This document shows, one piece after another, positions 3,854 to 64,000 of a stretch of 64,000 nt of DNA. The position numbers and the translations under genes are program-made. Source of the DNA: Vampirovibrio sp. (lineage in GTDB: Bacteria; Cyanobacteriota; Vampirovibrionia; Vampirovibrionales; JAJTHC01); NCBI GenBank assembly GCA_050916035.1, contig CP050876.1, positions 1,120,635 to 1,184,634 of the forward strand. Reading direction: 5' to 3'. The notes beneath the pieces are model-generated. The model made no database searches, had not been told where the DNA came from, and saw only the letters and a program-made list of their open reading frames with translations. Numbering within the stretch: the stretch's first letter is position 1; each line of letters begins with the position of its first letter.

Positions 3854-5182
3854 GGGGGGCCTCTTTCTCTTCAATCGGGGGGAAGACTCTCCGTATAAGC
3901 ATGGCAAAGCGCAGGGGTTTATTCATCCACACAAGGGCGTATTTTTTAAAAGGCTCTACAATCGCTCCGTTTAGGAAGCCGCGTGGGTGAGCGTCGGATC
4001 TGGCGTCACGGAAGACCCCTTGTTTTGAATACCAACTTTAAAGACGGCGAATTTAAAAATTCAGCGTCTAATTTTATTTTTAATCGCCAGTCCCATTTGG
4101 ATGAATAAAAATGTTTGTATTATATGTTGTACTAAAGATGAGATTGCATAAATAATTGACGGCAAAGAATATGAGGGTAAAATACTGGATACAGTATTTA
4201 TAGATATATTTACAGGTATTATAAAGCTATTTTTAAGAGATAATTCAATGAGCATGATTAGATAGTTTACAAGAGTATATTTTGATAATTTATTGTATTC
4301 AAAAATAAAAAAATTGATCAGCATAAATAAAATAATACCTCCTAAAAAACAAAACAACGGTCGTTTAAAAGATAGTCCATAACTAGAAGTTATTCTATAT
4401 AGATGATGCCAAACTGTTTGATGTGTGGATTGCATTTGTTGAAAATAGAAATCGTTCGAAACTTGAGCCTGTCCCAACTCACTTGTAATTTTTTTTAGAT
4501 AGCTGTAAACTTCTGCTTTTGTGTCTTTGTCAGTTAGTTCTAAAGCTTTTAAAGTTAAACTGTTCAATGTTCTATAACCGTTTAGTATTGGCCAAGTGCA
4601 ATAAGCTAAATCTAAACCTTGAAACCAATTCCCATTTTTGATAGTTATTGATTTCATCTGAGACGAAGTTACATCTATACTATTCTTAGGCATCACACAA
4701 GACTCGAAAACAATTTGATCTTCTTCTTTGTTTTTTAAAGCCACAATTGTCAAACGTTTTACAGCTTCTGTAGAGATTAAAGATTTAAATAACAATTTAG
4801 GATAGTTCGCTTGTTCAAAATTAAGTATTGTTGAAAAACTTTCTTTTATAAAAATAGATTTAAAACTTACAGGATCAGCAGTATTTTTAAGTCTCATATT
4901 GTCTAACCCTAGCAAGCCTTCAAATATAGAATATTCAAATTTAAGGGGGAGCTCAAAATAAGTTTCATCCAGATCACACCACTGTTTAAAAATAGCCCTG
5001 TAAAAGTTTACTGTACCTAAAAATTCTGATGATTTAAAATAAACATTCCCCTTAAATACAGCATCGGAAAAATCTAAATTTTCAAAAAAAACGCAATTAT
5101 TTAAACTTGTATGGTTAGGTAGTGTCGACATATAAATAATGATATAATAAATCCAAGATCTAGTTGTTTTGAGGGATTTATT

Positions 5183-5539
5183 ATGAACGATTATATTCAA
5201 TACGAGTTGTCTAAAGCCCAATGGAATCAGATAAAAGAGGCTCTACCTGGTCAGTCGCATCATAGAGGACGCACTGCCGAAAACAACCGTCTTTTTGTAG
5301 AAGCGGTATTATGGATGGGGCGAAACGGGGGAAGATGGAGGTCGCTTCCCTATTATTACGGCAAGTGGAGCAGTGTTCACAAGCGCTTCATTCGTTGGGC
5401 GAAACAAGGCATTTGGCAAATGATTTTCAACACCCTTGCCACATCGGCAGATACCGAATGGCTTATGATTGATTCGACGATTATTCGCGCCCACCAGTGT
5501 TCAGCAGGGGCAAAAAAAGTGCCGGAAAACAAGCGTTAG
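5183..5539 (+). CDS. IS5-family transposase orfA (HTH part)
   Basis: 118 aa N-terminal DNA-binding part of a two-ORF IS427-like transposase. The frameshift site gggcaaaaaaagtg lies at about 5505-5518. Confidence 0.75.
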   Translation: MNDYIQYELSKAQWNQIKEALPGQSHHRGRTAENNRLFVEAVLWMGRNGGRWRSLPYYYGKWSSVHKRFIRWAKQGIWQMIFNTLATSADTEWLMIDSTIIRAHQCSAGAKKVPENKR

Positions 5540-5943
5540 GACGATCGTCAGGGGGCTATACGAGCAAGCTTCACGCCGTTTGTGACAGCCACGGCAACCC
5601 CGTTCGCTTTATCGTCACCGCAGGGCAGGTTTCCGACTCAACCCAAGCCATCCCTTTGTTAAAAGGGCTTGAAGCCACGGCGGTTTTGGCGGACAAGGGC
5701 TATGTTTCAGAACAAATATTTGAGGCGATTCACCTCATGGGGGCTGAAGTGGTCATCCCTAATAAAAGCAATGCGGTGGCTCCTCGTCAAGTCGATTACT
5801 TCCTTTACAAGGCTCGCCACTTGGTAGAAAACTTGTTTAAAGACCTTAAAAACTTCAGGCGAATGGCAACCCGTTACGATAAATTAGATGTGGCTTATTT
5901 GTCTTTTGTTCATCTTGCTTCTATTTGTTTATGGCTTAAGTAA
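5497..5943 (+). CDS. IS5-family transposase orfB (DDE catalytic part)
   Basis: 148 aa DDE_Tnp_1-like C-terminal part (ADKGY..). It overlaps orfA in a different frame, consistent with a programmed frameshift. Confidence 0.75.
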   Translation: MFSRGKKSAGKQALGRSSGGYTSKLHAVCDSHGNPVRFIVTAGQVSDSTQAIPLLKGLEATAVLADKGYVSEQIFEAIHLMGAEVVIPNKSNAVAPRQVDYFLYKARHLVENLFKDLKNFRRMATRYDKLDVAYLSFVHLASICLWLK

Positions 5944-6687: not shown

Positions 6688-7872
6688 CTAATGAGGGAAG
6701 ACGCTGACATTACCGCCACTAACCATACAAATCACCAGTCGTGTGGGGGACGGGGACCATTCGGCGTGATGCATGGCCATATAAAGCGGCGCGCCTGACG
6801 GGCCTTCCACACGGGCCCCCAAATGACGCAAGGTTTCCTTCATGCCCCAGGCCATTTGCTCGTCATTCATTTTGGTGTGGATCACATTTAAGGCGTCAAA
6901 AATGGATTGATTACCTGCCGCAGGGGTTTTGACACGCACGGCATCCCCATATTTGGTGGACATATTATGGAGCCGAAGACCCACAAACTTCAACGACACC
7001 GACTGAAAGCGCGCCTCCCACGCGGAGGCCATGGCCAAGGCCGTGGCTGTGCCAGCCAACAAGCCCCCTCCGCCAATTGGGGAAATCAGCACCACTTCCG
7101 TAATGGCGGGATTCTGAGCCAAAATAGGCGTCAACTGTCGAAATAATTCGAGTCCAATGGTCCCCTGACCTGACACCACCCATGGGTTACTGTAAGGGTC
7201 CAAATAATAGCGTTCCCCGCCCAAGCTTTGTTCAATGGCCCATGCACGGGCGTCGTCAAAGGTATCCCCAATGTAGAGGACACTGGCGTCTACCCCCCGA
7301 TGACGCACGGCTAAAACTTTGCTATTGATGTTTTTCAGCTTAAGCGCCGCGGTATTGTTGGGCACCACAATTTGAACCGACGCAGGGCGCAACAATTCCG
7401 CAGCTTTTAAAATCCCCATGGCGTGGTTGCCTGTAGACACCGCAATAAACTGAGTCGCCCCGTAAGACAACATCGCGCGACGCATCCCGCAGAAGGCGCC
7501 CCTCATTTTATAGGCTTTAATAATGGTTTGGTCTTCTCGCTTAAAATAAAGATTCGGCGTCAAGGGGCTGGCGTCTAAGGCGGTGACGGCATGCAGGGGC
7601 AGTGAAGTCCCTGTCGTTTTGGAGCGAAGACTCAGGCTTTTACGAAAGGGGTGCATCAAGCGCTCGGCTTCTAAAATGGAGGTATACAAGTGAAGCAAGG
7701 GAATATAATGTTCAACATCTAGGCCTTCAGGCACGCTAGGCAAACTTATCCGCCCGTTGGAAGCCAGTTGCGGAAAGGCTCCCCCATTAAGGGCTTCGCT
7801 AGGAAAAAGCTGCGCTTCAAAGGGTGACGGAGAGGCAGAGGGCCGTGTTTCCATAAACGATGGAATAGGCAT
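6688..7872 (-). CDS. PLP-dependent threonine/serine dehydratase-family enzyme (fold-type II)
   Basis: TPL..YFKREDQ..AYKMRGA with the Schiff-base Lys, and a GGGGL glycine loop. About 55-aa N-terminal extension. Confidence 0.6.
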   Translation of the reverse strand: MPIPSFMETRPSASPSPFEAQLFPSEALNGGAFPQLASNGRISLPSVPEGLDVEHYIPLLHLYTSILEAERLMHPFRKSLSLRSKTTGTSLPLHAVTALDASPLTPNLYFKREDQTIIKAYKMRGAFCGMRRAMLSYGATQFIAVSTGNHAMGILKAAELLRPASVQIVVPNNTAALKLKNINSKVLAVRHRGVDASVLYIGDTFDDARAWAIEQSLGGERYYLDPYSNPWVVSGQGTIGLELFRQLTPILAQNPAITEVVLISPIGGGGLLAGTATALAMASAWEARFQSVSLKFVGLRLHNMSTKYGDAVRVKTPAAGNQSIFDALNVIHTKMNDEQMAWGMKETLRHLGARVEGPSGAPLYMAMHHAEWSPSPTRLVICMVSGGNVSVFPH

Positions 7873-52305: not shown

Positions 52306-53163
52306 ATGTCTGACGTATCAATTGAAAAGGATGATAAGCACATGGCAGAACTTTCGACACCTTTTGCGTTTTATAATGAAGAAAATGCCGTGGCCGATAT
52401 TGGCGTTTTTGGCGGTTCTGGATTTTATCAATTTTTAGAAAACACCAAAACCCTTCGTCTTGAAACGCCCTTTGGTTCACCGAGTGACGACATTACCTTA
52501 GGAGAAATACACGGAAAACGGGTGGCTTTTTTACCTCGCCATGGTAAGCAACATCATATTGCGCCTCACCGTATTAACTATAAAGCCAATGTGTGGGCCA
52601 TGAAAAGTCTAGGGGTGCATACGGTTATTTCTCCTTGTGCGGCAGGAAGCCTTCAAAAAGCGGTAGCCCCCGGTCATGTGGTGATTTGTGATCAATATGT
52701 AGACCGTACGCATAGTCGTGGAGATACCTTCTATGAAGGGTCCTTAATTACCCATGTATCCGCAGCGGATCCCTTTGATGAAGCGGGACGCCAGTGGGCG
52801 ATTCAAGCCGCCAAAGAAGCAGGTTTAACGGTACATGAAACAGGTACGGTGGTGGTGATTCAGGGGCCTCGTTTTTCGACGAAGGCGGAAAGTCAATGGT
52901 TCCGCAATCAAGGTTGGGAAGTGATCAACATGACCCAATACCCTGAAGTACATTTAGTCAAAGAGCTCAATCTTTACCCCATTAGTATTGCGCTGATTAC
53001 CGATTATGATTCAGGGGTGGATGGGATTCCTCCTGTAAGCCATGGTGAAGTCATGCAATTTTTCAATCAAAATGTGGTGAACGTGAAAACCTTACTTTTT
53101 AACTTGATTGAAAAAATACCCGCGCGTCGTCCCTTGCCTGATTACGTCCCCAGCGAACGATAG
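52306..53163 (+). CDS. mtnP: S-methyl-5'-thioadenosine phosphorylase (purine nucleoside phosphorylase family)
   Basis: IGVFGGSGFY and RHGKQHHIAPHRINYKANVWA..GVHTVIS.CAAGSL are MTAP/PNP-I motifs. Confidence 0.75.
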   Translation: MSDVSIEKDDKHMAELSTPFAFYNEENAVADIGVFGGSGFYQFLENTKTLRLETPFGSPSDDITLGEIHGKRVAFLPRHGKQHHIAPHRINYKANVWAMKSLGVHTVISPCAAGSLQKAVAPGHVVICDQYVDRTHSRGDTFYEGSLITHVSAADPFDEAGRQWAIQAAKEAGLTVHETGTVVVIQGPRFSTKAESQWFRNQGWEVINMTQYPEVHLVKELNLYPISIALITDYDSGVDGIPPVSHGEVMQFFNQNVVNVKTLLFNLIEKIPARRPLPDYVPSER

Positions 53164-53537: not shown

Positions 53538-56165
53538 CTAGGGCGATGCTTTTTTTTGAGCCAAGGCTTTTTGAGTCTTTACGTTTCGGTAAAAGGGAGC
53601 GATTGCCGAAGCGGGTTTGAGCAATGGGGGCTTTTCGTCTGAAGCATGTGTACTGGCGTGTGAGTGATGTAAAGCCTGTACCACGGAAGAATATAAAGAT
53701 CCTGCTAAAGCCATGGCTTCATTAAAGCAGAAAATCGAACCCGCGCAACATCCGTTCGCACAGACGGCTCCGCCTGCTCCTGCCATAATCGCCCATGCTT
53801 TTACCACTTGTGGATTATGCCCATTAATGTGGTCCGCCTTACTGGTATACAATTGTAATTCTTGAATAAAGGCATCCCGCGCTTCTGGCGACCACTTGTT
53901 TTTGTCCAGCACGGCCTTTATGTTGGCTTGCGTGTCAGGGGCGATATGGCCGTCTTGGTGTAAAGGCTTCAGGACGGCCAAGGCTCGGGTGACGTGATTA
54001 AAATTGTCTGCCAAGGTGGACTTCGGTTTTAAGACCTCAGGCGCTTCATGCAGGTGTTGAGCAATGGCTTTTAAACTGGCTAAGCCTCCAATGCCTTCGT
54101 GTTCTAAACCGTGAAGTAAATCAGGCTGTTCTTTCAAGAGTTTGGCTATAGCGTCGCCACTGAACACCCAGTGAAAGATGTCGCCGCCATTGGCATCATG
54201 CGGATCAAAGGTGGAGGTGCCTTTTTTAGGGGCTTCAGGGGCATGGTGATGATGGTCATCTTCGCAGTGGGCGTGGTCATGGTGTATTTCGGGCCTAGAA
54301 GCGCTAGAAAAATCGGTGTTTTGTTTTGAAAAGTCAATATCCCTCAGTGAATGGCTACTTGTACATTTCGCATCCGTACAGGCGTGAACGAAGTTTTCCT
54401 TAAAGGATTCATATTCTTGTGGGTTAGAATGCCGTTGTAATAGACGTGTATATATTGCCTCTAAATCATCAACAGGATCATTAACACCTATCGTAGCACC
54501 AAGACTACCCATTCCAAAGGCTGAGTTTACATTTCTGCCTGCTTCGGATTTTTCTCTGTGCTTCGCTATTGCTGCCATTGCCTTTGCGATCAATTCCGTA
54601 TTATGGATATCATCTTCTGGTTCAAAAACTTGGGTATGTATGTTTTTCGATACCGTATTAAAAGTCAAATGTTCGAGCAGTTCGTTACGAATTTTTAAAT
54701 CTTCCGCCTGAGATTGGGCGTTATGCAACCCGTCTGCCATGTCCTCCCATTCTGCTTCTAAGTCTTCTTGTTCCTCTATTTTGGCTTGACGTTCTGCCTC
54801 ATACGCTTTTTGCGCTTTGGCTTGAAGCAAACGCTCATCATAGGCGTGCGCTTGATCCGCACGACCATGAAACGCCACCGCCTTATAGGCCACTTGCACA
54901 GAGTGTGCCGCGTCTAATTTTTTTAAGGCGTCCTGTTCTAAAACCTCTCGCGCCACTAGGCTAGGGCGAATCAAATCAGGGATGGCTTCTTTGGCCAAAC
55001 GGGCTTCCACTTCCTGATGAATCTTCAGGAAGGGATGTTGTTCTTTTTGTGCTAAAAGGGCTTCTAAGGTAGCCGTTTTTTCGCCTAAATTTTGGGTGGT
55101 CATATGCGCAAGTTCAGACTTTAAATAAGGCTGAAAGACTCGGCTTAACCCTTTCGACGTATAAGCCCCCAAAACATCAGAAAAAACAGTCCCTTTATAC
55201 GCTTGGGAAGTCCCCGTTAAAGGGATGGCCCGCAAGATATTATAAAGCTCATGTTCAACGCCCTTGCGATTATTCATACTGGGTTCATGACGGCGATAGT
55301 AGTTGTCTTTCCCCGCGAGTGTGGGGTCGCCCTGTACCAAGAAAGGATCTTCAAACGCGTTTTTAAAAACCTGACCCACTTGATTTAAACGTTTAGTCTG
55401 CCACGCGGTTTTAAGCGATTCCCGCACTCCGTTGACGACGCCATCCACATGATGCACCGTATTGATGTACCAGCCTTTTTCCCCTCCCCATAAGGGGCGT
55501 TCAGTCGTGGCGTGGGCAAAGGGATTTTTAAGTTCCATTAAGCCCAAGTGAACCCGTGGAAACAAGGCCAGAGCGCCTACCGCGGTGACGCCTGAAACCG
55601 CTAAGCCACTAAGACCCTTGGCGAGGGATTTTTGATTGGCGGACCAGTCCTTTTGATCATCAATACCCTCTTCTATTTTTTCGTGCGCCGTACTAGCGAC
55701 CAAAGCGGACCCTGCGAGTAAAGGGGCCATGGTTAAAAAATGAGCCGTTTTCATCCCGATGCTACCAGGAATCATGGCATGAAATGCAGCACCTAATTCT
55801 AAGGCCAGTAAAGGAGAAGCCAGACTTAAACCGATGCCTTTATTGATCATCGACACCGCACTCATTAAGCCCAAAGCTTTTAAAACCGCCAAGGGCGTGG
55901 GTTGAAATAAGGCAGAACTTTCGACTCTAGGACGAAGCCATGAGGGAACATTCGTCCCTTTTCCCACTTTTTTACGGGCGAAATTCAAAACAGATTCTTG
56001 ATTGCCCAAGGCGATGATGGCCCCCCCCAGCAGGAGTCCACTGCCTACTTGAGTCCATTTATTTTCAGGTTCATGTTGATCATGTACAGCCGTGTCATGT
56101 TGATGCCCAACGCGTGGCTGCAAAGCAACCACAGGGATAGTCAAAGACGAAGAGCTTACACGCAT
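53538..56165 (-). CDS. large hypothetical protein with N-terminal hydrophobic segments and His-rich stretch
   Basis: 875 aa with several hydrophobic helices in the first 250 aa and HHDHAHCEDDHHHHAPE. No catalytic motif recognised. Confidence 0.4.
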   Translation of the reverse strand: MRVSSSSLTIPVVALQPRVGHQHDTAVHDQHEPENKWTQVGSGLLLGGAIIALGNQESVLNFARKKVGKGTNVPSWLRPRVESSALFQPTPLAVLKALGLMSAVSMINKGIGLSLASPLLALELGAAFHAMIPGSIGMKTAHFLTMAPLLAGSALVASTAHEKIEEGIDDQKDWSANQKSLAKGLSGLAVSGVTAVGALALFPRVHLGLMELKNPFAHATTERPLWGGEKGWYINTVHHVDGVVNGVRESLKTAWQTKRLNQVGQVFKNAFEDPFLVQGDPTLAGKDNYYRRHEPSMNNRKGVEHELYNILRAIPLTGTSQAYKGTVFSDVLGAYTSKGLSRVFQPYLKSELAHMTTQNLGEKTATLEALLAQKEQHPFLKIHQEVEARLAKEAIPDLIRPSLVAREVLEQDALKKLDAAHSVQVAYKAVAFHGRADQAHAYDERLLQAKAQKAYEAERQAKIEEQEDLEAEWEDMADGLHNAQSQAEDLKIRNELLEHLTFNTVSKNIHTQVFEPEDDIHNTELIAKAMAAIAKHREKSEAGRNVNSAFGMGSLGATIGVNDPVDDLEAIYTRLLQRHSNPQEYESFKENFVHACTDAKCTSSHSLRDIDFSKQNTDFSSASRPEIHHDHAHCEDDHHHHAPEAPKKGTSTFDPHDANGGDIFHWVFSGDAIAKLLKEQPDLLHGLEHEGIGGLASLKAIAQHLHEAPEVLKPKSTLADNFNHVTRALAVLKPLHQDGHIAPDTQANIKAVLDKNKWSPEARDAFIQELQLYTSKADHINGHNPQVVKAWAIMAGAGGAVCANGCCAGSIFCFNEAMALAGSLYSSVVQALHHSHASTHASDEKPPLLKPASAIAPFYRNVKTQKALAQKKASP

Positions 56166-56463
56166 AGAGATACCTTTGGTGGGTCATATAGTATTTTAAT
56201 AATCAACCATACAGCGTCTCTTCGTTGTCACTACGATTCTCGATGTGCTTATGTACGTCTTTAGTACACTTCACACCTCTGCGAGTCTAGGCTCCTAGAA
56301 TAGCCTACTGTCTGCTTAATTATTAAAAACACTATAAAAAGTTTTCAAACCGAACACGAAACTTCTTTTAAGCTTACTTATAGCCCAAGTATCTTCAAAA
56401 TGCAACACTGTTGTATAAAATATTACATTTCGTTAGAATTAAATTGACGATGCAACCGTCTAT

Positions 56464-57276
56464 TTAGTAAAATAAGGCACTAATGATATAGTCTAACAAG
56501 GCCATCACAATAAAACTCCAGACCACGGCTTTGGTCACCGATTTGGCCGATTCATTGCTAGAACGGCTAGAGGTAAAGCCCACACTACAGCATAATAAGC
56601 CAATCATACCTGCAAAAACCACAGATTTTAAAAATAAGACCCCAATATCCTTCATTTCAATAAATTCACGCACAGAGTCTAAATACGTGGTATAAGGAAT
56701 GCCTGCAATAAAATTAGCCGTATACATTCCCCCTAAAATACCCAAACTGGTGCCGATGAGCGTTAAAAACGGTAATACAATTAAAGTCGCCACGACACGC
56801 GGAATCATCAGGTAACGAATGGGATTCATTTGCAGAACCTTTAGCGCATCAAGCTGATTATTACTTTTCATGACGGTAATTTCCGCAGCAAAGGCGGAGC
56901 CTGCCATGGCAATCACGGAAAAGCCTGTCATCACGGGGCCGAGTTCTCGAACCATCGCCACCGATACCAAGGCGCCTACGAACGGTGTTCCGCCTTGATC
57001 CGCCATATCTTTGGCGACTTGCATCGCCAGCACCGCCCCTAAAGTCCCTGTGAGTAATAGCGACATCGGTAGGCTGTCCCACCCGACAAACGCAATTTTT
57101 TCTAGAATAGCAGGCCAGCTTCCATGCCCTTTTAGGATATAGCGACACATGATGCTCCCGTCAATCACGGCAAAGCCCATGGTTTCTAAAATACCTGACA
57201 AGGGTTCTAAGCACCACGCGAAAAAACGTCGAGTCAAGGGAAATAAAGGTTCGGACGAGGATCGAGACATACGCAA
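56464..57276 (-). CDS. mlaE: MlaE/YrbE-family ABC transporter permease (lipid asymmetry maintenance)
   Basis: GPVMTGFSVIAMAGSAFAAEITVMKSNNQLDALKVLQMNPIRYLMIPRVVA matches the MlaE conserved EAL..G..P core. Confidence 0.75.
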   Translation of the reverse strand: MRMSRSSSEPLFPLTRRFFAWCLEPLSGILETMGFAVIDGSIMCRYILKGHGSWPAILEKIAFVGWDSLPMSLLLTGTLGAVLAMQVAKDMADQGGTPFVGALVSVAMVRELGPVMTGFSVIAMAGSAFAAEITVMKSNNQLDALKVLQMNPIRYLMIPRVVATLIVLPFLTLIGTSLGILGGMYTANFIAGIPYTTYLDSVREFIEMKDIGVLFLKSVVFAGMIGLLCCSVGFTSSRSSNESAKSVTKAVVWSFIVMALLDYIISALFY

Positions 57277-57597
57277 AAACTTTTCGTGACAAGAGGGATA
57301 CTTTATTTTAATTATACAGGAAAGGCTCTAAATACGTTTGCCTCCCGACAATAATAATATACAAGCAAAGATACGACAACAATCACAAATCTTGCGAAAT
57401 GCGGGCTAATTAGCCTTTACCGCTCATGTGGTGAAGGGGTTTCTCTCTTTAAGGGAAGCAAGTAAGTGTAACATTTACTTGACAGATCAAATAAAATGTG
57501 TATTTTTATGTCATTTGCTTGACTTTATGTTTCTAGTGAGTCAAAATACTCATGAGGCTCATTGACCATGTTGTCAAAGGAGTTCCGTGGGCGTTTT

Positions 57598-58206
57598 CTA
57601 CTTATAGTAGGGGACGCTTTTCTGGTTTTTTAAAAATATGATACACTTGCTCGAAGAGGATTGAAGATTTTGTAAAGACTGAATTTGAGGATATTGTTTT
57701 TCAAGTGTTGTTTTAAACTTTTTTGCCTTGGGGTTGAAATGATATGACGAAATAAGTTGCCAATGGTAATTTCGGTCTTCTAATACAATAAGGTGTGCAA
57801 CATCCCCTTGCCACCATGCATAGGTGTATCTATAGCGTTCTTTTACAAAACGTGTTTCAGTAATCAAGAGTTCATCGTTTTGATACCCATAAGTTAAGAG
57901 TGGACGAATCCATGGGATGCGAATAACTCTATCAAAATCAGGTATTCTGATATTGTAATTTTCAATTTTTTGTGAATGAGGTTCGGCATTTTTGCTTGTT
58001 ACATGATAAAAACTTTCTATATAATTAAGATAACTTTTAGTACTAAAAAGCTTTATAGGCTTATTCTTGAAATGAATTGGGTTTAAACATAAATCTTGTT
58101 CAAAAATTTGATAAGCATTGGCTATTGTCGCATCATAACCTTGTGAATCGAGAGATAGTCGCTCTGGTAACCAAAAAGGTAGCTTCAATTTACTATTGAG
58201 AGACAT
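57598..58206 (-). CDS. hypothetical protein (about 203 aa), partner of DUF3800 gene
   Basis: Low-GC ORF. Chosen start MSLNSKLK gives an ATGA start/stop overlap with the upstream gene. No known domain. Confidence 0.4.
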   Translation of the reverse strand: MSLNSKLKLPFWLPERLSLDSQGYDATIANAYQIFEQDLCLNPIHFKNKPIKLFSTKSYLNYIESFYHVTSKNAEPHSQKIENYNIRIPDFDRVIRIPWIRPLLTYGYQNDELLITETRFVKERYRYTYAWWQGDVAHLIVLEDRNYHWQLISSYHFNPKAKKFKTTLEKQYPQIQSLQNLQSSSSKCIIFLKNQKSVPYYK

Positions 58207-58207
58207 C

Positions 58208-58921
58208 TTAACGACCTCCTTGCAAACGGGGTTGCCAGTGAAAGAGATTGAACTTTGCTTCGCCCAGTGGGGTGGAATGCTTGAGTGTGTAACCACTACG
58301 GTTTTGGATATGCTGAATCAACCTTTGTTTCGCCAAGCTTTCAGGAGGGTTCGGACGGTTATGAGCCATGACGGCTCCCAATAATAAATCCGTCAATTGA
58401 ATCAGTTCGACTTCATGGGAATGCACGGCTTGAATATCTCGAATTAAGTCCATTTGAAAATCATGATTCGCATTACATAAAACATGCTTAAGCTTTTCTC
58501 GCCGTTGGGATCCACAGGTGTCTTTAATATCTAAAAAAATGTGAAAAAATCCTTGATTATGAATGTGGCGGTCGAGTAAAAAATAGTACATTTTGTAGTA
58601 CCAGTCTTCATGCGTTTGATAAAACTGGTCATGCTGTAAATTAACCTTATGAGCGACCAACCCTCTAAAACGTAAGGCGTTATTATCAAAAAAATAATCC
58701 ACCCACGCCAAATAAAAATCCAACTTCGCAGGGGAAACCTTATTCCATTTTACATCCATGCCCTTTAATCCGTGATCTTCTTTAATTTTTCGAAGCGCCT
58801 TATGTGTTTTAGCCACATCTTTATAAGAGCAAGCCATAGCGCCTAAAACCATATTAGGTTGATGATCATGTTCTAAGTGGCAACTTTCATCACAATATAA
58901 AAAGGTCATTTCTTTTTTCAT
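58208..58921 (-). CDS. DUF3800-family protein
   Basis: The N-terminal FLYCDES motif is characteristic of DUF3800. 237 aa, low GC. Confidence 0.55.
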   Translation of the reverse strand: MKKEMTFLYCDESCHLEHDHQPNMVLGAMACSYKDVAKTHKALRKIKEDHGLKGMDVKWNKVSPAKLDFYLAWVDYFFDNNALRFRGLVAHKVNLQHDQFYQTHEDWYYKMYYFLLDRHIHNQGFFHIFLDIKDTCGSQRREKLKHVLCNANHDFQMDLIRDIQAVHSHEVELIQLTDLLLGAVMAHNRPNPPESLAKQRLIQHIQNRSGYTLKHSTPLGEAKFNLFHWQPRLQGGR

Positions 58922-59333
58922 TTCAGTGTCTTTCTATTGTGTAAAGGGACTTAATTCGATTATATTCCAAACAAAAAAAGGATAGTTTTAGTCGCTAGGC
59001 GAAGCCTCTAAAATGGGGTGCTTGAAAAAACCATATACAAGAGAAAATACGGCAACACTTACAAGTCTTGCAAGACAAGGGCTACTTAGCCTCTTATTAT
59101 ACGGTTTTTAGTTTACTTGGCTATAGATTTCTGGAAACCCGCACAAATACTCATAAATGCGTGTCCATTGATAGGGATTAAGACGCAACGAATAGGACAT
59201 ACAAACCCTCCTTTAAAAGAAGTGTATCCTGCCCCTTACTAAATCTCAACAGAACCTATTTCTTATATTCAATAGGAATACGATAATCGTATAAAAACAG
59301 CTCAATTTAATTTGGTGCGCTATTGACCAAACT

Positions 59334-60386
59334 TTACAAGGCATTGCCAAAGGCGGAGGCTTCTGCGTCACGAAGGCGCTGCCGTGCCAAGGCATCCTCC
59401 CCACGATGGACTTGTACCTCATTCAAGGGGACCCATTCAGGGACCTGCGTGTGTCCTTCCCTTCCCACAAAAACCAAATAGGTACTGGCCACCAAACGAG
59501 GCATGCTCCCTGCTTGAGACAAGGCTTCACAGTCGACTTGAACTTCTAAAGCGCCGTCCCATGTTTTGGTCACCACCGCTTTGGGTCTTAAAATATCTGT
59601 AATATAGGTCGGTGCCTTAAAATCCATACGGTCTTGTCGGATACATCGGATTTGGTCATGCCCCACGTGGGAGGTGGCCGCCTTCAGGGCCACATCAAAC
59701 ATATGAGACAAGACGACCCCCCCAAAAATATTTTGCTCTAAACCATTGCCGTCTTCGTCGGTCATAACAAACTGTCCAATCGCACTTGCTTCACTTCCTA
59801 CAATGGGGTGCCATGTGGTTTGAAGTAGTTCTTCTTGTCGATACGTCTTACGTAAATCCGCAGAGCGTTGTAAAAGCTGGTCTTCAGGAGTAATGGGAAG
59901 CAGGGCGGGAATGCAGTTAGCATCCGCCTTGCCTTGGCCTTGTTCAGAAGTCGCGACGGCCACCACATAAGCCGTGGCCACTAGGCGTGTTTCATCCGTA
60001 CGGAAATTCCATGCGGTGACCACCACACGACTTTCCATACTCGTTTTCCATACCCGCGTCATACGCGCATCTAAGGATAAAATTTCCCAAGGGAAAACAG
60101 GCGCGATAAAATCCAAGCGATCAATTGAAGCCGTCACGGGGTTAAGGTTTGCTCCTAAATGGCGTTTAACGGGGATGCATCCTGCAATGTCAATCAACTT
60201 TAACAATTCCCCTACGGGCACGGACCCATGTATCCCTACCATCGAATTAAATAAGGGTACTTGCAAGCGAAACGCACTTTCATCTGCAATTTTAGTGGGC
60301 TTTAAAATTTCGGAATTGGTCTCATGGGGATCGATTTGGGATTGAAACGGCATAGTCAGCATTTTCCTATGATTTAAACTAGTCAT
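59334..60386 (-). CDS. acyl-CoA thioesterase with tandem hotdog domains (ACOT/BFIT-like)
   Basis: Two hotdog-like halves. FGGVVLSHMFDVALKAAT resembles the HGG..L.WMD.AA motif. Start set at 60386 (MTSLNHR) because the longer ORF (to 60653) runs into rnpB. Confidence 0.5.
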   Translation of the reverse strand: MTSLNHRKMLTMPFQSQIDPHETNSEILKPTKIADESAFRLQVPLFNSMVGIHGSVPVGELLKLIDIAGCIPVKRHLGANLNPVTASIDRLDFIAPVFPWEILSLDARMTRVWKTSMESRVVVTAWNFRTDETRLVATAYVVAVATSEQGQGKADANCIPALLPITPEDQLLQRSADLRKTYRQEELLQTTWHPIVGSEASAIGQFVMTDEDGNGLEQNIFGGVVLSHMFDVALKAATSHVGHDQIRCIRQDRMDFKAPTYITDILRPKAVVTKTWDGALEVQVDCEALSQAGSMPRLVASTYLVFVGREGHTQVPEWVPLNEVQVHRGEDALARQRLRDAEASAFGNAL

Positions 60387-60469
60387 CGCTACAGTATAAA
60401 TTAAAAAACGTGACCGTACACAAGTGAACGTCGTCTTAAAGTGATTGAAGGAGGCTTGTTTAAAAAATA

Positions 60470-60882
60470 GCGTGTGGTGTAAGCCGGGTTCTGTTTTTAT
60501 CGTAATCATCTGTCTTGGGGGAAGGTCACCCTTCACTCCTCTAGCGGCGTATGTTCTTCGCTTGTTCCGCCGAGCAGACGTTTTGAACAAGCCTCTAACA
60601 AACACTAGCCTTGCACCCAGTTGGGGTTTACCTAGCCATGGTCTTACGGCCATGCTGGTGAGCTCTTACCTCACCGTTGCACCTTCGCCTGCGTTCCAAA
60701 CGAATCCACCCAAAGGTGTTTTCCGTTCATTCACATCGGCTGTCTTCATTTCTGTGGCACTTTCCTCACGGTTGCCCGCACCAGGCGTTACCTGGCGACT
60801 CGCCCTTGGGAGCCCGGACTTTCCTCAGGTTGGTGGACAGTACAAAAGTTCCGTCCCCACCCCGCGATTACGTACCACACGC
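60470..60882 (-). ncRNA. rnpB: RNase P RNA, bacterial type A
   Basis: The minus strand contains GAGGAAAGTCCGGGCTCC (P4 5' strand), GGTGCAACGGTGAGGTAAGAGCTCACC (GGTGCGGTAAGAGCGCACC consensus), ACAGAAATGAAGACAGCC and the 3' ACAGAACCCGGCTTA. GCGTGTGGT at the 5' end pairs with ACCACACGC at the 3' end (P1). Confidence 0.85.
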
Positions 60883-60952
60883 TACAAGTAGTAGTATGAC
60901 ACAAATGTAGGAGGAATCCAAGTCAAGCCCTTGAGGCAAAGTTATATTCCGC

Positions 60953-62167
60953 TTAAAGTACAATGGTTCCGCCGTAGCGCCCTCGTTTAAACGTGACGCG
61001 TTTTTCACTTTCGAGCTGTTTCAAACCGCGGCGAATGGAATTGACCGTCACGCCAATTTCGTCAGACAAGGCTTGGACTGAAGGCAGTTGTTCTCCCGAC
61101 TGAAATTCATTCGAGAGCTTGGCATGCAGGGACTGATACGCTTTTTCATAATCATACGCTTCAATGTGTTGTTCCACCGGGATAAAGAAATGTTCAATAT
61201 CACTTAAAGGCGTCGTATACAAAGGCAAGCGGGTCACGTAAGTGCCGTAGCGTCCACGTTTGGCATGGGTCATGCCTTGTTCCGCTAAGCGTTGCATCGC
61301 GTCATGCACAGTTTTAATCGACACCTTGAACGATGTCGCCAATTCCTGATGCGAAGGTAAGGTGTCATTGACTTCATAGTGATCCGAAATCAAGGCTTTG
61401 AGGTCTCGCTCCACTTGATCAATCAACGTATAGGATTCAATCGGGGCAAAAACTTTTCCCACATGTTCAATAGAAGGCAAGCGTTTCAACGTCCAGTTGG
61501 GTTTTTTACCTCGATTGCCCATGGCTTCTAAAAGGCCTTCATTGGCCAAAAATTCCATGGCCAATCGCGTGGTGTTGGGAGCCGAATCAATGGTTTTGGC
61601 CATTTCACGGCTTGAAGGCAGAATATCATTGACTTGGAAACCCGCACTGACAATATACTGTTGAATGGCCAATACGGCTTGATCCCGCTTAGAGGTTTGC
61701 TTACGAATACGTGAAACCTCTTGCGTATCAGACGCATTGCGTAACAAGGTTCCAATACGTTGCTTGGATTCCACCCAGCCTTCGTCTTCCACAAAACGAA
61801 TTGCATTTTGAACCGTTCCAATACTGACGCCTAAATAATCGGCCAAATCTTTTTTCAAGGGAAGTAAATGAGATTCATGCAAGGTGGCTTGTTCAAAACC
61901 TGCTTGAATCCAAGCGCTTAACCATTCTGCGATTTGAGTATCTTTACCAACCCCCATACTGAGAGAAAACGCTTCAGGTAATTCATTCACGCTTAAGCGA
62001 ATAGGGGCTTGAAGCGTCGCGGTATTTTCCAGCACTTGCTCATGCAAGAGCCTTGTAGAACTAAAGGCGCCTTTGACTTGCCGAGTGGCGGGTCGCATAT
62101 TTTGCGTGCCATTGACGGCCATATGAAGGGAAAGCGTTTCTGTGGGTTGTTGAGGCGTTTTGGACAT
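60953..62167 (-). CDS. multi-domain transcription regulator with four tandem GntR-type winged-HTH modules
   Basis: Four repeats of LPS..ELA..VS..TV..A...L...G.......G.GT.V, starting LPLKKDLADYLGVSIGTVQNAIRFVEDEGWV, LPSSREMAKTIDSAPNTTRLAMEFLANEGLL, LPSHQELATSFKVSIKTVHDAMQRLAEQGM and LPSVQALSDEIGVTVNSIRRGLKQLESEKRV. Confidence 0.6.
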   Translation of the reverse strand: MSKTPQQPTETLSLHMAVNGTQNMRPATRQVKGAFSSTRLLHEQVLENTATLQAPIRLSVNELPEAFSLSMGVGKDTQIAEWLSAWIQAGFEQATLHESHLLPLKKDLADYLGVSIGTVQNAIRFVEDEGWVESKQRIGTLLRNASDTQEVSRIRKQTSKRDQAVLAIQQYIVSAGFQVNDILPSSREMAKTIDSAPNTTRLAMEFLANEGLLEAMGNRGKKPNWTLKRLPSIEHVGKVFAPIESYTLIDQVERDLKALISDHYEVNDTLPSHQELATSFKVSIKTVHDAMQRLAEQGMTHAKRGRYGTYVTRLPLYTTPLSDIEHFFIPVEQHIEAYDYEKAYQSLHAKLSNEFQSGEQLPSVQALSDEIGVTVNSIRRGLKQLESEKRVTFKRGRYGGTIVL

Positions 62168-62439
62168 GAATGGTTCCTTATCTATGTCATCTATGTCTGA
62201 TGAGTGTTAAATGTGATGCAAAGCCTTTTGTCGAAAAATATATAAAATATGCATCCTCTATACGTATTAAAACAAACAGCGTTCTATTTAATGCTATTGT
62301 TTTAATAGAGATTACTTTATTTACCTTTCGGCTGAGACAACGCAGACTTTAATTTTTGTTACAAATAAAAACAAACACAGGTATCCGTCGTTCATTTTAA
62401 ATCTTGTTCCCTAGATTCTGTTGAGATTTGTTAAGAGGC

Positions 62440-63030
62440 AGGATGCACTGCTCTAAAAGGAGGGTTTATAGGTTTTATTCGTTGAGGCTCAACCCCTATC
62501 AATGGGCACGCATTTATGAGTATTTATGCGGGTTTCAAGAAATTCATGTCAAAAATAAAGCCGTCTGCCGTCACACTACGGGTCGTGGAATACGGTCTAC
62601 CGCCGTTTTGCAGACTGGGCGAAAAAAGGAATTTGGTACAAAATGCTGTATTATTTTCAAGAAGATCCCGATATGGAGTATATCATGGTGGATTCTACGA
62701 TATTAAGGGCGCACGCCTGTGCCAGTCCCAAAAAAACGAGCAAGACTCTGAAGGCTTAGGGCGTTCTTGTGGGGGCTTTTCTTCTAAAATACATGCCGTA
62801 TGCGATGCGCTGGGCAATCCGTTAGGCTTTATTGTCAGTGGTGGTTAGGGTCACGACGCGACGCAAGCCATTGCTTTAATTTCGGGGCTTCAGGTGAACG
62901 CCTTACTGGCGGACAAGGGCTATGATAGCGATGCTAGTCGTGAGTTTGCGCGGCATCAGGAAATTGAACCTCATATCCCTCCTCGTCAAAACCGTGTAGA
63001 AACAAGGTTTTATGATAAAGAACTGTGAGA
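62440..63030 (+). pseudogene. degraded IS5-family (IS427-like) transposase remnant
   Basis: Fragments of the orfA-like GIRS..WAKKGIWYKML..MVDSTILRAHACAS and the orfB-like LADKGYDSD, broken by several frameshifts and stops. Distinct in sequence from the intact IS. Confidence 0.6.
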
Positions 63031-63089
63031 CATTTAACTATTTAGCTATATTTTAAGTTGACTTGGTGGAAGTAAATAGCTACCGCATG

Positions 63090-63585
63090 AATGAAGTCTT
63101 TCAGGCTCCGAGACACCACCTTCCATAGCTTTCTCAGGGTTTTAAGGCCACGACAACCCACTTCCCAGTCAAGGGTTCGTCGCGTTTCTCGACACAGAGC
63201 CAGCCATACCCATATTTTGCGTTTTTTTAGTCAAAAAAGTGCAGAGCTCATCCAGTTCAAGCACGGTGACGGGTTGCGGTTCGAGCCGAGAGCCTGAGCT
63301 GTCCATTTTTCGAATTTGTTTAAGCACCGCCACTGTAGAAACCCCAATTATTTTCCCAATTTGGCGGAGGGAAACCCCCGACAAATAGAGATTTCTGGCA
63401 AGCTCCCACAAGTGCGGAGCAAGCCCCTTGGGGGTAGAACGTGTATATTAACAGGGACAATTTTTGCATTGATAGCGTTGGTTTTCGCCAATAAATACTG
63501 CTTTGACTTTGTCAAAACTACCACATTTGGCACACTGCCTTTTATAGTACTCCTTAATAGACTTAAGGAGTATTATAAAAGCTAT
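63090..63585 (-). pseudogene. IS1-family (InsA/InsB-like) transposase remnant
   Basis: The minus strand encodes the C..CAKCGSFDKVK..RYQCKNC zinc-finger and the GVSLRQIGKIIGVSTVAVLKQIRKM HTH of InsA, then an InsB N-terminal ELDELCTFLTKKTQ. It is interrupted by stops. Confidence 0.55.
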
Positions 63586-64000
63586 TTAGGTAGTGTCGAC
63601 ATTTACTTAAGCCATAAACAAATAGAAGCAAGATGAACAAAAGACAAATAAGCCACATCTAATTTATCGTAACGGGTTGCCATTCGCCTGAAGTTTTTAA
63701 GGTCTTTAAACAAGTTTTCTACCAAGTGGCGAGCCTTGTAAAGGAAGTAATCGACTTGACGAGGAGCCACCGCATTGCTTTTATTAGGGATGACCACTTC
63801 AGCCCCCATGAGGTGAATCGCCTCAAATATTTGTTCTGAAACATAGCCCTTGTCCGCCAAAACCGCCGTGGCTTCAAGCCCTTTTAACAAAGGGATGGCT
63901 TGGGTTGAGTCGGAAACCTGCCCTGCGGTGACGATAAAGCGAACGGGGTTGCCGTGGCTGTCACAAACGGCGTGAAGCTTGCTCGTATAGCCCCCTGACG
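63586..64000 (-). mobile_element. IS5-family (IS427-like) element, copy 3, reverse orientation, truncated by window end
   Basis: Begins with the IR TTAGGTAGTGTCGACAT at 63586. orfB (63603-63890, minus) is identical to orfB of copies 1 and 2. Confidence 0.85.

Follow-up and report, generated by a model that had tools for sequence, protein, structure and literature searches.

The 64-kb window of Vampirovibrio sp. DNA analyzed here (64,000 nucleotides (nt) of contig CP050876.1) contains, at positions 57467–59017, what is probably a copy of a three-part mobile module, consisting of a nuclease of the DUF3800 family, a partner protein of the RlfB family, and a predicted small RNA (sRNA) that would keep the pair off; the direct repeats that flank it would be unrelated relics. 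(All coordinates are positions in the window, and L-numbers such as L002 and L009 are labels of the loci compared with it.) The cassette is read from the minus strand and comprises a promoter region, the DUF3800/RlfA-like gene, the RlfB-like gene, and the convergent sRNA gene. A preliminary description of this DNA had recognized a two-gene cassette, and these two open reading frames (ORFs) are indeed the only protein genes between the 67-nt repeats, but the sRNA, as a third component, was overlooked.

The first of the two genes (58208–58921, minus strand) encodes a protein of 237 residues with the N-terminus MKKEMTFLYCDES, whose assignment to DUF3800 was borne out by a match to Pfam PF12686 at 57.1 bits (cut-off 21). 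It also matched the PADLOC model for PDC-M04A (PDLC04353, E=1.1e-84) over residues 6–232 of 237, and PHROG family 3732. Across 30 homologues, D11, E12, D131, D134, E170, Q175 and D178 are invariant, forming an N-terminal DE and a C-terminal QxxD motif (Q175-L-T-D178). The protein was confidently predicted to adopt an RNase H2-like nuclease fold, in agreement with published predictions that describe DUF3800 as RNase H2-like with DE...QxxD residues (PMC7736814, PMC10910872). With its acidic active site intact, this predicted metal-dependent nuclease is likely to be the effector of the module. Genes of this type are abundant: at E<=1e-10, 6393 clusters were found within the RlfA-like clade alone. 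Searches of PDB sequences with this protein, and likewise with its partner, gave no matches.

DUF3800 RNase H-like domains also serve as accessories or effectors of RNA-linked immunity in type VII retrons and in the Cas12a2-associated TPR-DUF3800 proteins (PMC7736814, PMC10910872). Unlike those systems, the cassette has no reverse transcriptase, no msr/msd and no CRISPR array, and the partner is an RlfB-family protein; moreover, the retron-linked DUF3800 clade lacks the Q of the QxxD motif, which is intact in the window protein.

The partner gene (57598–58206, minus strand) had been described as a domain-less ORF of 203 residues. No Pfam match was found, as stated, but the product has 202 residues, the remaining codon being the stop. 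An ATGA overlap between the two genes, and the translational coupling deduced from it, did not hold up: on the minus strand the junction reads ...GGAGGTCGT TAA G ATG..., with the DUF3800 stop at 58210–58208, one spacer base, and the partner ATG at 58206–58204. The partner thus starts 1 nt past the DUF3800 stop, and an AAGGAGG ribosome-binding site of its own lies ahead of it. True overlaps of 1 or 4 nt are present in the homologues at L014 and L018 and in phage P1.

A word-indexed protein search with the partner recovered only the partner itself. Profile comparisons placed it in the RlfB family: it matched the PADLOC PDC-M04B model PDLC04355 (E=5e-22) as well as seven other B models, and PHROG phrog_16230 at E=9.5e-8. 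The family numbered 82 representatives at E<1e-3 in an exhaustive search, with invariant H68, R93 and W99, and its motifs WLP, FWH and RxPDxxRxxRxxW are all present in the window protein. Fold prediction, in which RelE/BrnT-type (BECR) RNase toxins were considered, gave no secure fold for the partner. Its length varies among relatives (170, 193, 202, 207 or 217 residues), and at L018 the DUF3800 protein is 84% identical to that of the window, yet the partner is a different variant of 193 residues; the nearest non-identical family representative is 51% identical. Judged by these sequences, the partner is evolving or recombining much faster than the DUF3800 nuclease.

Both proteins have homologues in phage P1. 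Against phage genomes (tblastn), P1 RlfA matched the DUF3800 protein with 43% identity and E=1e-49, while P1 RlfB matched the partner with 25% identity and reached 3e-42 against the family profile; rapA and rapB of phage P7 are likewise homologous to the pair. The earlier characterization of the genes as an uncharacterised DUF3800 protein with an unknown partner was therefore overstated, the pair being homologous to rlfA and rlfB and the DUF3800 fold being RNase H2-like. The order DUF3800 to partner was constant in every chromosomal or metagenomic relative examined, in P1, and in 77 of 80 IMG/VR loci. By sequence, the pair adds a member to an already known candidate family, that of P1 RlfAB and PADLOC PDC-M04.

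The PDC systems comprise 145 candidates that were discovered as passengers embedded in BREX, DISARM or type I restriction-modification (R-M) operons (10.1101/2024.01.29.577857). The window pair resembles PDC-M04 in that both the A and B models are matched and the genes lie 1 nt apart on the same strand, and its relative at L028 is embedded in a type I R-M operon with the order hsdM, hsdS, DUF3800, partner, hsdR. (The same operon holds a second embedded passenger at 613–1080 of L028, a gene for an NTase_sub_bind protein, nucleotidyltransferase substrate-binding and HEPN-like, between hsdM and hsdS.) Unlike PDC-M04, the window copy is not embedded in another defence system, and PDC-M04 was defined as two candidate proteins without an RNA component. 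At L011 the pair is found at the end of a prophage, beside an LXG toxin. The proposal of a compact, horizontally mobile two-gene module, a candidate anti-phage or toxin pair, is thus supported by the PDC-M04 matches of both proteins, their constant order, and the R-M embedding at L028.

In the P1 record the pair directly follows kilA-repL/oriL, has a C1 operator, and is labelled "possibly associated with lytic replication". This raises the alternative that the genes are phage replication accessories, with RlfA as an RNase H-type enzyme processing primers or R-loops and RlfB as a replication protein, and that the chromosomal copy is a stranded prophage fragment. The predicted RNase H2-like fold would suit such a role, and phrog_16230 carries the label "replication protein". 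The P1 label, however, is only positional, P1 was viable when rlfA and rlfB were knocked down, both being dispensable in a CRISPR interference screen (PMC10695390), and some P1-like plasmids carry other cargo in place of rlfAB (PMC6906374). No phage or replication genes lie nearby here or at at least six other chromosomal sites, and one copy sits inside a type I R-M operon. We consider a replication role quite improbable, and prefer the reading of the pair as part of a three-component mobile module.

The third component emerged when the DNA beyond the partner stop codon was compared across loci, which revealed a conserved element of about 33 nt. In the window this element is a hairpin on the plus strand at 57554–57587, with the sequence GAGGCUCA-UUGAC-CAUGUU-GUCAA-AGGAGUUCCG and 8 base pairs. 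It is preceded by a sigma-70-like promoter at 57519–57547 (TTGACT, 17 nt, CAAAAT) and followed by a predicted Rho-independent terminator at 57589–57629, formed by a 14-bp stem (57589–57619) and a T tract to about 57629, that overlaps the partner stop codon and the last ~10 codons of the partner gene. Together, these signals predict an sRNA of about 75 nt that is convergent with the partner gene. A possible small peptide after the AAGGAG of the RNA was discarded: the window has a GTG-initiated frame of six codons, but it is not conserved in aligned homologues.

An nhmmer profile found exactly one copy of the motif in 90 of 110 sequences, and in 89 of the 91 loci with a partner gene, the two without a match being contig ends. 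Eighty-six copies lie on the strand opposite to the genes, at −25 to +43 nt from the partner stop codon (median 29). The remaining three share the strand of the genes and lie further away; in these the promoter, motif and terminator are inverted as one block. Among 36 non-redundant loci, a promoter scoring at least 8/12 preceded the motif in 32, with a −10 box that mostly ended 4–7 nt before it, and a terminator hairpin with a T run followed it in 34.

The consensus fold is a hairpin of 3 + 5 base pairs, 5'-(A)GCUCA-NNNNC-CAUGU-GNNNN-AGGAGUUCC, whose stem occurs in many variants, including UCUAC/GUAGA (P1), UUGAC/GUCAA (window), CGAAC/GUUUG, CCUAC/GUAGG, UCCAC/GUGGA and UUCAC/GUGAA. Over 22 distinct sequences, 99.4% of the cells were standard pairs, and sliding the hairpin by 1–3 columns reduced the pairing to 37–62%. 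Double compensatory changes occurred at five of the eight pairs (16 cells), and none of 500 shuffles equalled the data in these measures, while the count of further pair types was reached by 22 of the 500. At one position, 13 sequences have an A-U pair and 9 have G-U. Read from the gene-sense strand, the latter would be an A-C mismatch, which places the fold on the strand opposite to the genes. RNAalifold returned the identical hairpin together with the downstream terminator stem, with compensatory changes in 15 of 19 pairs.

A covariance model built on the motif (R1) scored 46.2 bits (E=2e-11) at 57554–57587 on the plus strand, whereas the next best match in the 64-kb window had 10.8 bits, and no matches were found in cassette-free loci. 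Weaker matches (15–16 bits) were obtained in unrelated plasmids of Rhizobium and Phocaeicola, in the correct place and on the correct strand, with further compensatory variants. P1 itself carries the motif on the complementary strand at nt 52947–52979 of AF234172, in a stretch between rlfB and pmgF that carries no annotation in the record. The phage module has the same two families in the same order and, on the opposite strand directly after rlfB, the same hairpin together with its promoter and terminator. It differs from the window copy in being under a C1 operator by the lytic replicon of a plasmid-prophage, rather than a free-standing 1.55-kb cassette in a Vampirovibrionales chromosome, in the stem sequence (UCUAC/GUAGA in P1 and UUGAC/GUCAA here), and in the length of the partner (154 residues in P1, 202 here). 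Taken together, we hold it to be highly probable that the RNA gene is real.

We considered the possibility that the hairpin works as DNA, either as a single-strand recombination or transposition site (attC-like, or similar to the subterminal hairpins of the IS200/IS605 type) or as a protein operator, which would explain how the cassette moves without a recombinase of its own. The hairpin is at most about 90 nt from the sharp 3' end of the cassette, GTCAAG-type motifs are repeated at that end, and folded single-stranded DNA sites also tolerate strand-specific G-T pairs. A DNA site, however, would not account for a well-spaced promoter (32 of 36 loci) and T-run terminator (34 of 36) that share the orientation of the hairpin and flip with it in three loci, and conservation of the motif is just as strong in P1 and in prophages that carry the pair as fixed cargo. 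Furthermore, no matching hairpin exists at the 5' end of the cassette, and no HUH or integron-type recombinase is among the genes listed around the cassettes. This interpretation appears very improbable, and the hairpin is treated below as part of an RNA.

Structured RNAs near DUF3800 genes have been described before: Weinberg et al. (2017) reported 11 such motifs, without a functional hypothesis (PMC5737381). No Rfam 15 family matched the present motif in any locus, including targeted scans of 150 nt at E<=10, with DUF3800-I and -IX, drum and skipping-rope among the families covered. (The scans used E<=5 for 56000–60500, E<=10 for 57500–57650 and for L011, and E<=1 for 14 prophage loci.) Like the published motifs DUF3800-I to -XI, drum and skipping-rope (PMC5737381), the motif is a structured RNA near a DUF3800 gene, an arrangement that occurs on either strand and often with a Rho-independent terminator following; unlike them, it is a simple hairpin of 8 bp bound to the RlfA/RlfB subfamily, a comparison made through Rfam 15 families only. 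It looks like a further DUF3800-associated RNA motif, specific to the RlfA/RlfB clade and set apart from the published ones via Rfam 15.

The extent of the mobile unit was defined by comparison with other copies. Loci L009 and L010, in which the cassette sits between yajQ and purD, are 91% identical to the window over exactly 59017–57467, at a different chromosomal site, and have an identical partner, while L018–L020 are 74% identical over 59013–57467. In both groups, homology to the window ends at 57467 ("...TTGTTACA") on one side and at 59013–59017 on the other. Relatives whose DUF3800 protein is 52–86% identical were found flanked by yajQ and an ABC-permease gene, by an acetyltransferase and an HDOD gene, or by thioredoxin and a short-chain dehydrogenase, as well as after ftsZ and after a glycosyltransferase gene, so that closely related cassettes occupy at least seven different chromosomal sites; remoter relatives share parts of the unit only. 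Since the same ends recur at independent sites, the cassette is very probably a discrete mobile unit of about 1.55 kb. In L009, the partner gene, the RNA region and the 3' flank are ~99% identical to the window, but the DUF3800 gene only ~87%, which indicates that the cassette is a mosaic. The unit is also AT-rich, as previously noted, with a GC content of 0.362 compared with 0.447 for the whole window, a value as low as this being reached by 1.1% of windows of the same size.

No recombinase or integrase gene was found in or near the cassette, either among the genes between the repeats or in the neighbours (mlaE and an insertion sequence (IS) fragment), and no convincing terminal inverted repeats or target duplications were seen at its ends, apart from a recurrent GAAAA-like flank. 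Scanning genomes with MlaE identified seven Vampirovibrionales relatives, of which L002 is the closest (95% nucleotide identity). In L002, synteny extends through mlaE to 57344, followed by a TPR protein, murA and dnaN, and the cassette is absent. None of the seven relatives offered a clean empty site, because L002 breaks at 57344 and the others differ upstream of mlaE. Directly upstream of the cassette in L009, at 6698–6890, a 21-nt unit (GGCCATGAAAGTCGTTTTTCT) is repeated in tandem about eight times. These repeats occur neither in the window nor in L018, and look like iterons or a binding array.

The preliminary description had further proposed that direct repeats of about 52 bp bracket the genes as a duplicated attachment or target site. 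The repeats are real, but longer than claimed: 57350–57416 and 59026–59092 are 67 nt each and 76% identical, with a spacing of 1676 nt. Alignment of the two 300-nt flanks gave a local score of 35, compared with 10.5 ± 1.4 (maximum 17) for shuffled sequences, and the repeat core occurs in only two places in the window. When translated on the plus strand, the left repeat reads NNNIQAKIRQQSQILRNAG*LAF, with an in-frame stop (TAA), and the right repeat reads KNHIQEKIRQHLQVLQDKGYLAS. Both match the C-terminal domain of DpnI (DpnI_C, PF17726, cut-off 23), the left with 32.9 bits at domain positions 38–64 of 70, and the diverged right one with 27.6 bits at positions 41–60 of 70; longer translations left this result unchanged. 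A metagenome scan with the repeat core yielded a single locus (L016), where the match falls within the C-terminal part of a real DpnI-family gene fragment (PF06044 + PF17726); it matches the right repeat, with DKG codons that differ synonymously.

Like DpnI and the Dam-replacing endonucleases (PF06044 + PF17726), the repeats thus encode pieces of the C-terminal winged-helix domain; unlike them, they retain only ~22–27 codons each, with no catalytic domain (PF06044), no start codon, and one in-frame stop, so that no intact DpnI-like gene is present at either repeat. As both matches exceed the threshold while the rest of the gene is missing, the repeats appear to be two diverged relics of the 3' ends (the last ~25 codons) of a DpnI-like gene. 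Three other interpretations of the repeats were discarded. A dispersed element was at odds with the two window copies and the single metagenome match to a real DpnI gene; a structured RNA had no support from folding z-scores of −0.5 to −1.8; and a tblastn hint that the left relic reaches upstream into the DNA shared with L002 was not supported by the Pfam hidden Markov model.

Could the repeats nevertheless be the attL and attR sites of an integrated element? In one version, integration took place into the 3' end of a DpnI-like gene, the element brought a substitute end, and the repeats were imperfect from the outset. The repeats are direct and highly significant, both begin at about the same position of DpnI_C (~38–41), and the longest identical run (ATATACAAG) lies at the 5' edge, like a crossover core. 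In addition, synteny with L002 (ending at 57344) is lost within 5 nt of the start of the left copy, which is directly followed by a terminator-like hairpin (57414–57437), as expected of a substitute gene end. The other copies of the cassette argue against this. The repeats lie outside the DNA common to independent copies (57467–59017), the right one abutting the 5' end of the cassette and the left one 50 nt away; no comparable repeats flank the other insertion contexts tested (L009, L018, L023/L024), where the cassette evidently moves without them; and the same cassette ends with unrelated flanks have already been seen at several sites. Neither the unit nor its vicinity encodes an integrase or recombinase, the body of the presumed DpnI-like target gene is absent, and the 24% divergence between the repeats greatly exceeds the 5% between this genome and L002. 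We therefore regard attachment sites as unlikely, and have high confidence that the repeats are DpnI_C relics rather than demonstrated att sites. The att-like reading is corrected accordingly: the repeats are decayed ends of a restriction-enzyme gene.

How might the three components of the module work together? The 3' end of the operon transcript and the predicted sRNA are fully complementary, and in the proposed mechanism the sRNA would hold the nuclease pair off. One possible route is pairing with the 3' end of the operon mRNA, with hairpin-hairpin contact through the palindromic CAUG loop, in the manner of type I toxin-antitoxin systems; as in type III systems, the RNA might also act as a ligand of the proteins. 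If transcription or RNA turnover were then disturbed, by an infecting phage or because the element is lost, the short RNA would drop and the nuclease would be released, with abortive infection or the exclusion of competitors as the outcome. That the RNA sequence, with its invariant AAGGAGU tail, is conserved across phyla speaks for a conserved partner that recognizes it rather than for mere complementarity.

Type I toxin-antitoxin modules with a convergent antisense RNA that overlaps the 3' end of the toxin gene include txpA/RatA and bsrG/SR4 of B. subtilis. The present module shares with these, and with the type III system ToxIN, a short, separately promoted RNA that converges on the 3' end of a putative toxin operon, and a small mobile format found on prophages and plasmids. 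It departs from the type I pattern in its two sizeable cytoplasmic proteins, putative as toxins, in place of a small membrane peptide, and in an RNA conserved across phyla, beyond the needs of plain antisense pairing. ToxI, on the other hand, consists of tandem repeats upstream of an endoRNase toxin, whereas the RNA here is single-copy, downstream and convergent, with no tandem repeat in the cassette.

Prophages, the plasmid-prophage P1 and R-M operons all carry the module, which also occurs as a free cassette. Whether its role is anti-phage or inter-element defence is, in our estimate, close to an even call. A purely selfish addiction (toxin-antitoxin) module with no part in phage defence would have an anatomy identical to that of the RNA-controlled module proposed here, and it would fit a carrier such as the P1 plasmid-prophage, which already depends on addiction modules, as well as the copies scattered among housekeeping genes. 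The embedding in R-M and BREX-type operons on which PDC-M04 is founded, and the prophage-end "moron" position typical of defence cargo, point away from pure addiction, and the two roles are compatible with each other; we rate the purely selfish version as rather unlikely. A more far-reaching proposal, which we put forward only tentatively, is that RlfA/RlfB (PDC-M04) modules, P1 included, might be obligate three-component RNA-protein systems, built on an RNase H2/PIWI-like DUF3800 nuclease for which the RNA would serve as specific ligand, antitoxin or guide.

Several points weigh against the interpretation of the cassette as a mobile, RNA-controlled module. Its movement is unexplained by a recombinase, terminal inverted repeats or a clear target duplication, and its 5' end varies by 25–45 nt among copies, some of which reach further. 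The promoter and terminator of the sRNA are predicted as consensus matches only; many of the 91 loci are near-duplicates, so the covariation rests on ~22–36 distinct sequences that are related by descent; and the sRNA could be identical to a DUF3800-associated motif of Weinberg et al. (2017) that lies outside Rfam. Simple decay leaves the shared start position of the two DpnI_C relics unexplained. As to function, the source of the PDC systems (Payne et al., 2024 preprint, 10.1101/2024.01.29.577857) itself describes all 145 of them as untested candidates, and P1 rlfAB owes its "lytic replication" label to position only.

Retrons, CRISPR loci, R-M operons and phage P1 all contain DUF3800 genes, to which 11 unexplained RNA motifs have been tied since 2017. 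With a strictly conserved, covarying sRNA, what was a two-protein candidate becomes a defined three-part system that is testable in E. coli with P1 genetics. If the obligate three-component reading is true, it would amount to a new class of immunity controlled by RNA, and would give a first functional clue to why so many different structured RNAs accompany DUF3800 genes. The mode of movement of a recombinase-less 1.55-kb cassette with fixed ends at at least seven chromosomal sites is a question in itself.

The surroundings of the cassette bear traces of other mobile DNA. As originally described, the pair sits between mlaE (56464–57276) and a 4HBT thioesterase gene. Between the right repeat and the thioesterase lies a truncated 5' fragment of an IS5-family transposase gene (59127–59258, minus strand, 132 nt), which forms a 132-nt inverted repeat, 86% complementary, with 62412–62543; these inverted transposase 5' ends flank a block consisting of the thioesterase, rnpB and a GntR-repeat gene. 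The final 1.6 kb of the window (62400–64000) is pieced together from degraded IS fragments, which lie on both strands. This arrangement suggests that the neighbourhood was rearranged by IS activity, and that the cassette lies in a rearrangement-prone zone.

Within the flanked block, a bacterial class A RNase P RNA gene (60465–60883, minus strand, 214.8 bits) extends over the first ~60 codons of the ORF at 59334–60653 (439 residues, "thioesterase"), so that the true start of the thioesterase must lie further downstream. The adjacent gene at 60953–62167 (minus strand) encodes a protein of 404 residues that consists almost entirely of GntR-type winged-helix repeats (four matched stretches) without an effector-binding domain, an unusual architecture for a regulator; an exact-protein look-up with it gave no match.

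On the other side of mlaE, an intergenic element of ~150 nt (56188–56336) has 21-nt terminal inverted repeats (56194–56214 and 56308–56328). It reached the gathering threshold of no Rfam family. In L005 and L006 the element is 93–95% identical, though the adjoining mlaE is only ~74% identical, and three diverged copies are present in L008; it looks like a miniature inverted-repeat transposable element or another small mobile element. Next to it, 53538–56165 (minus strand) encodes a His-rich protein of 875 residues whose sole domain match is a faint TgpA_N. This protein is ~79% identical to its L002 orthologue, compared with ~95% for the flanking DNA, and 54282–54741 is unalignable as DNA; the locus is evolving fast or recombining. 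Finally, the lowest GC of any 1.5-kb stretch in the window (0.335, below that of the cassette) is found at about 4000–5550, with IS5-type transposase fragments nearby (~5683), and this may be another acquired segment.

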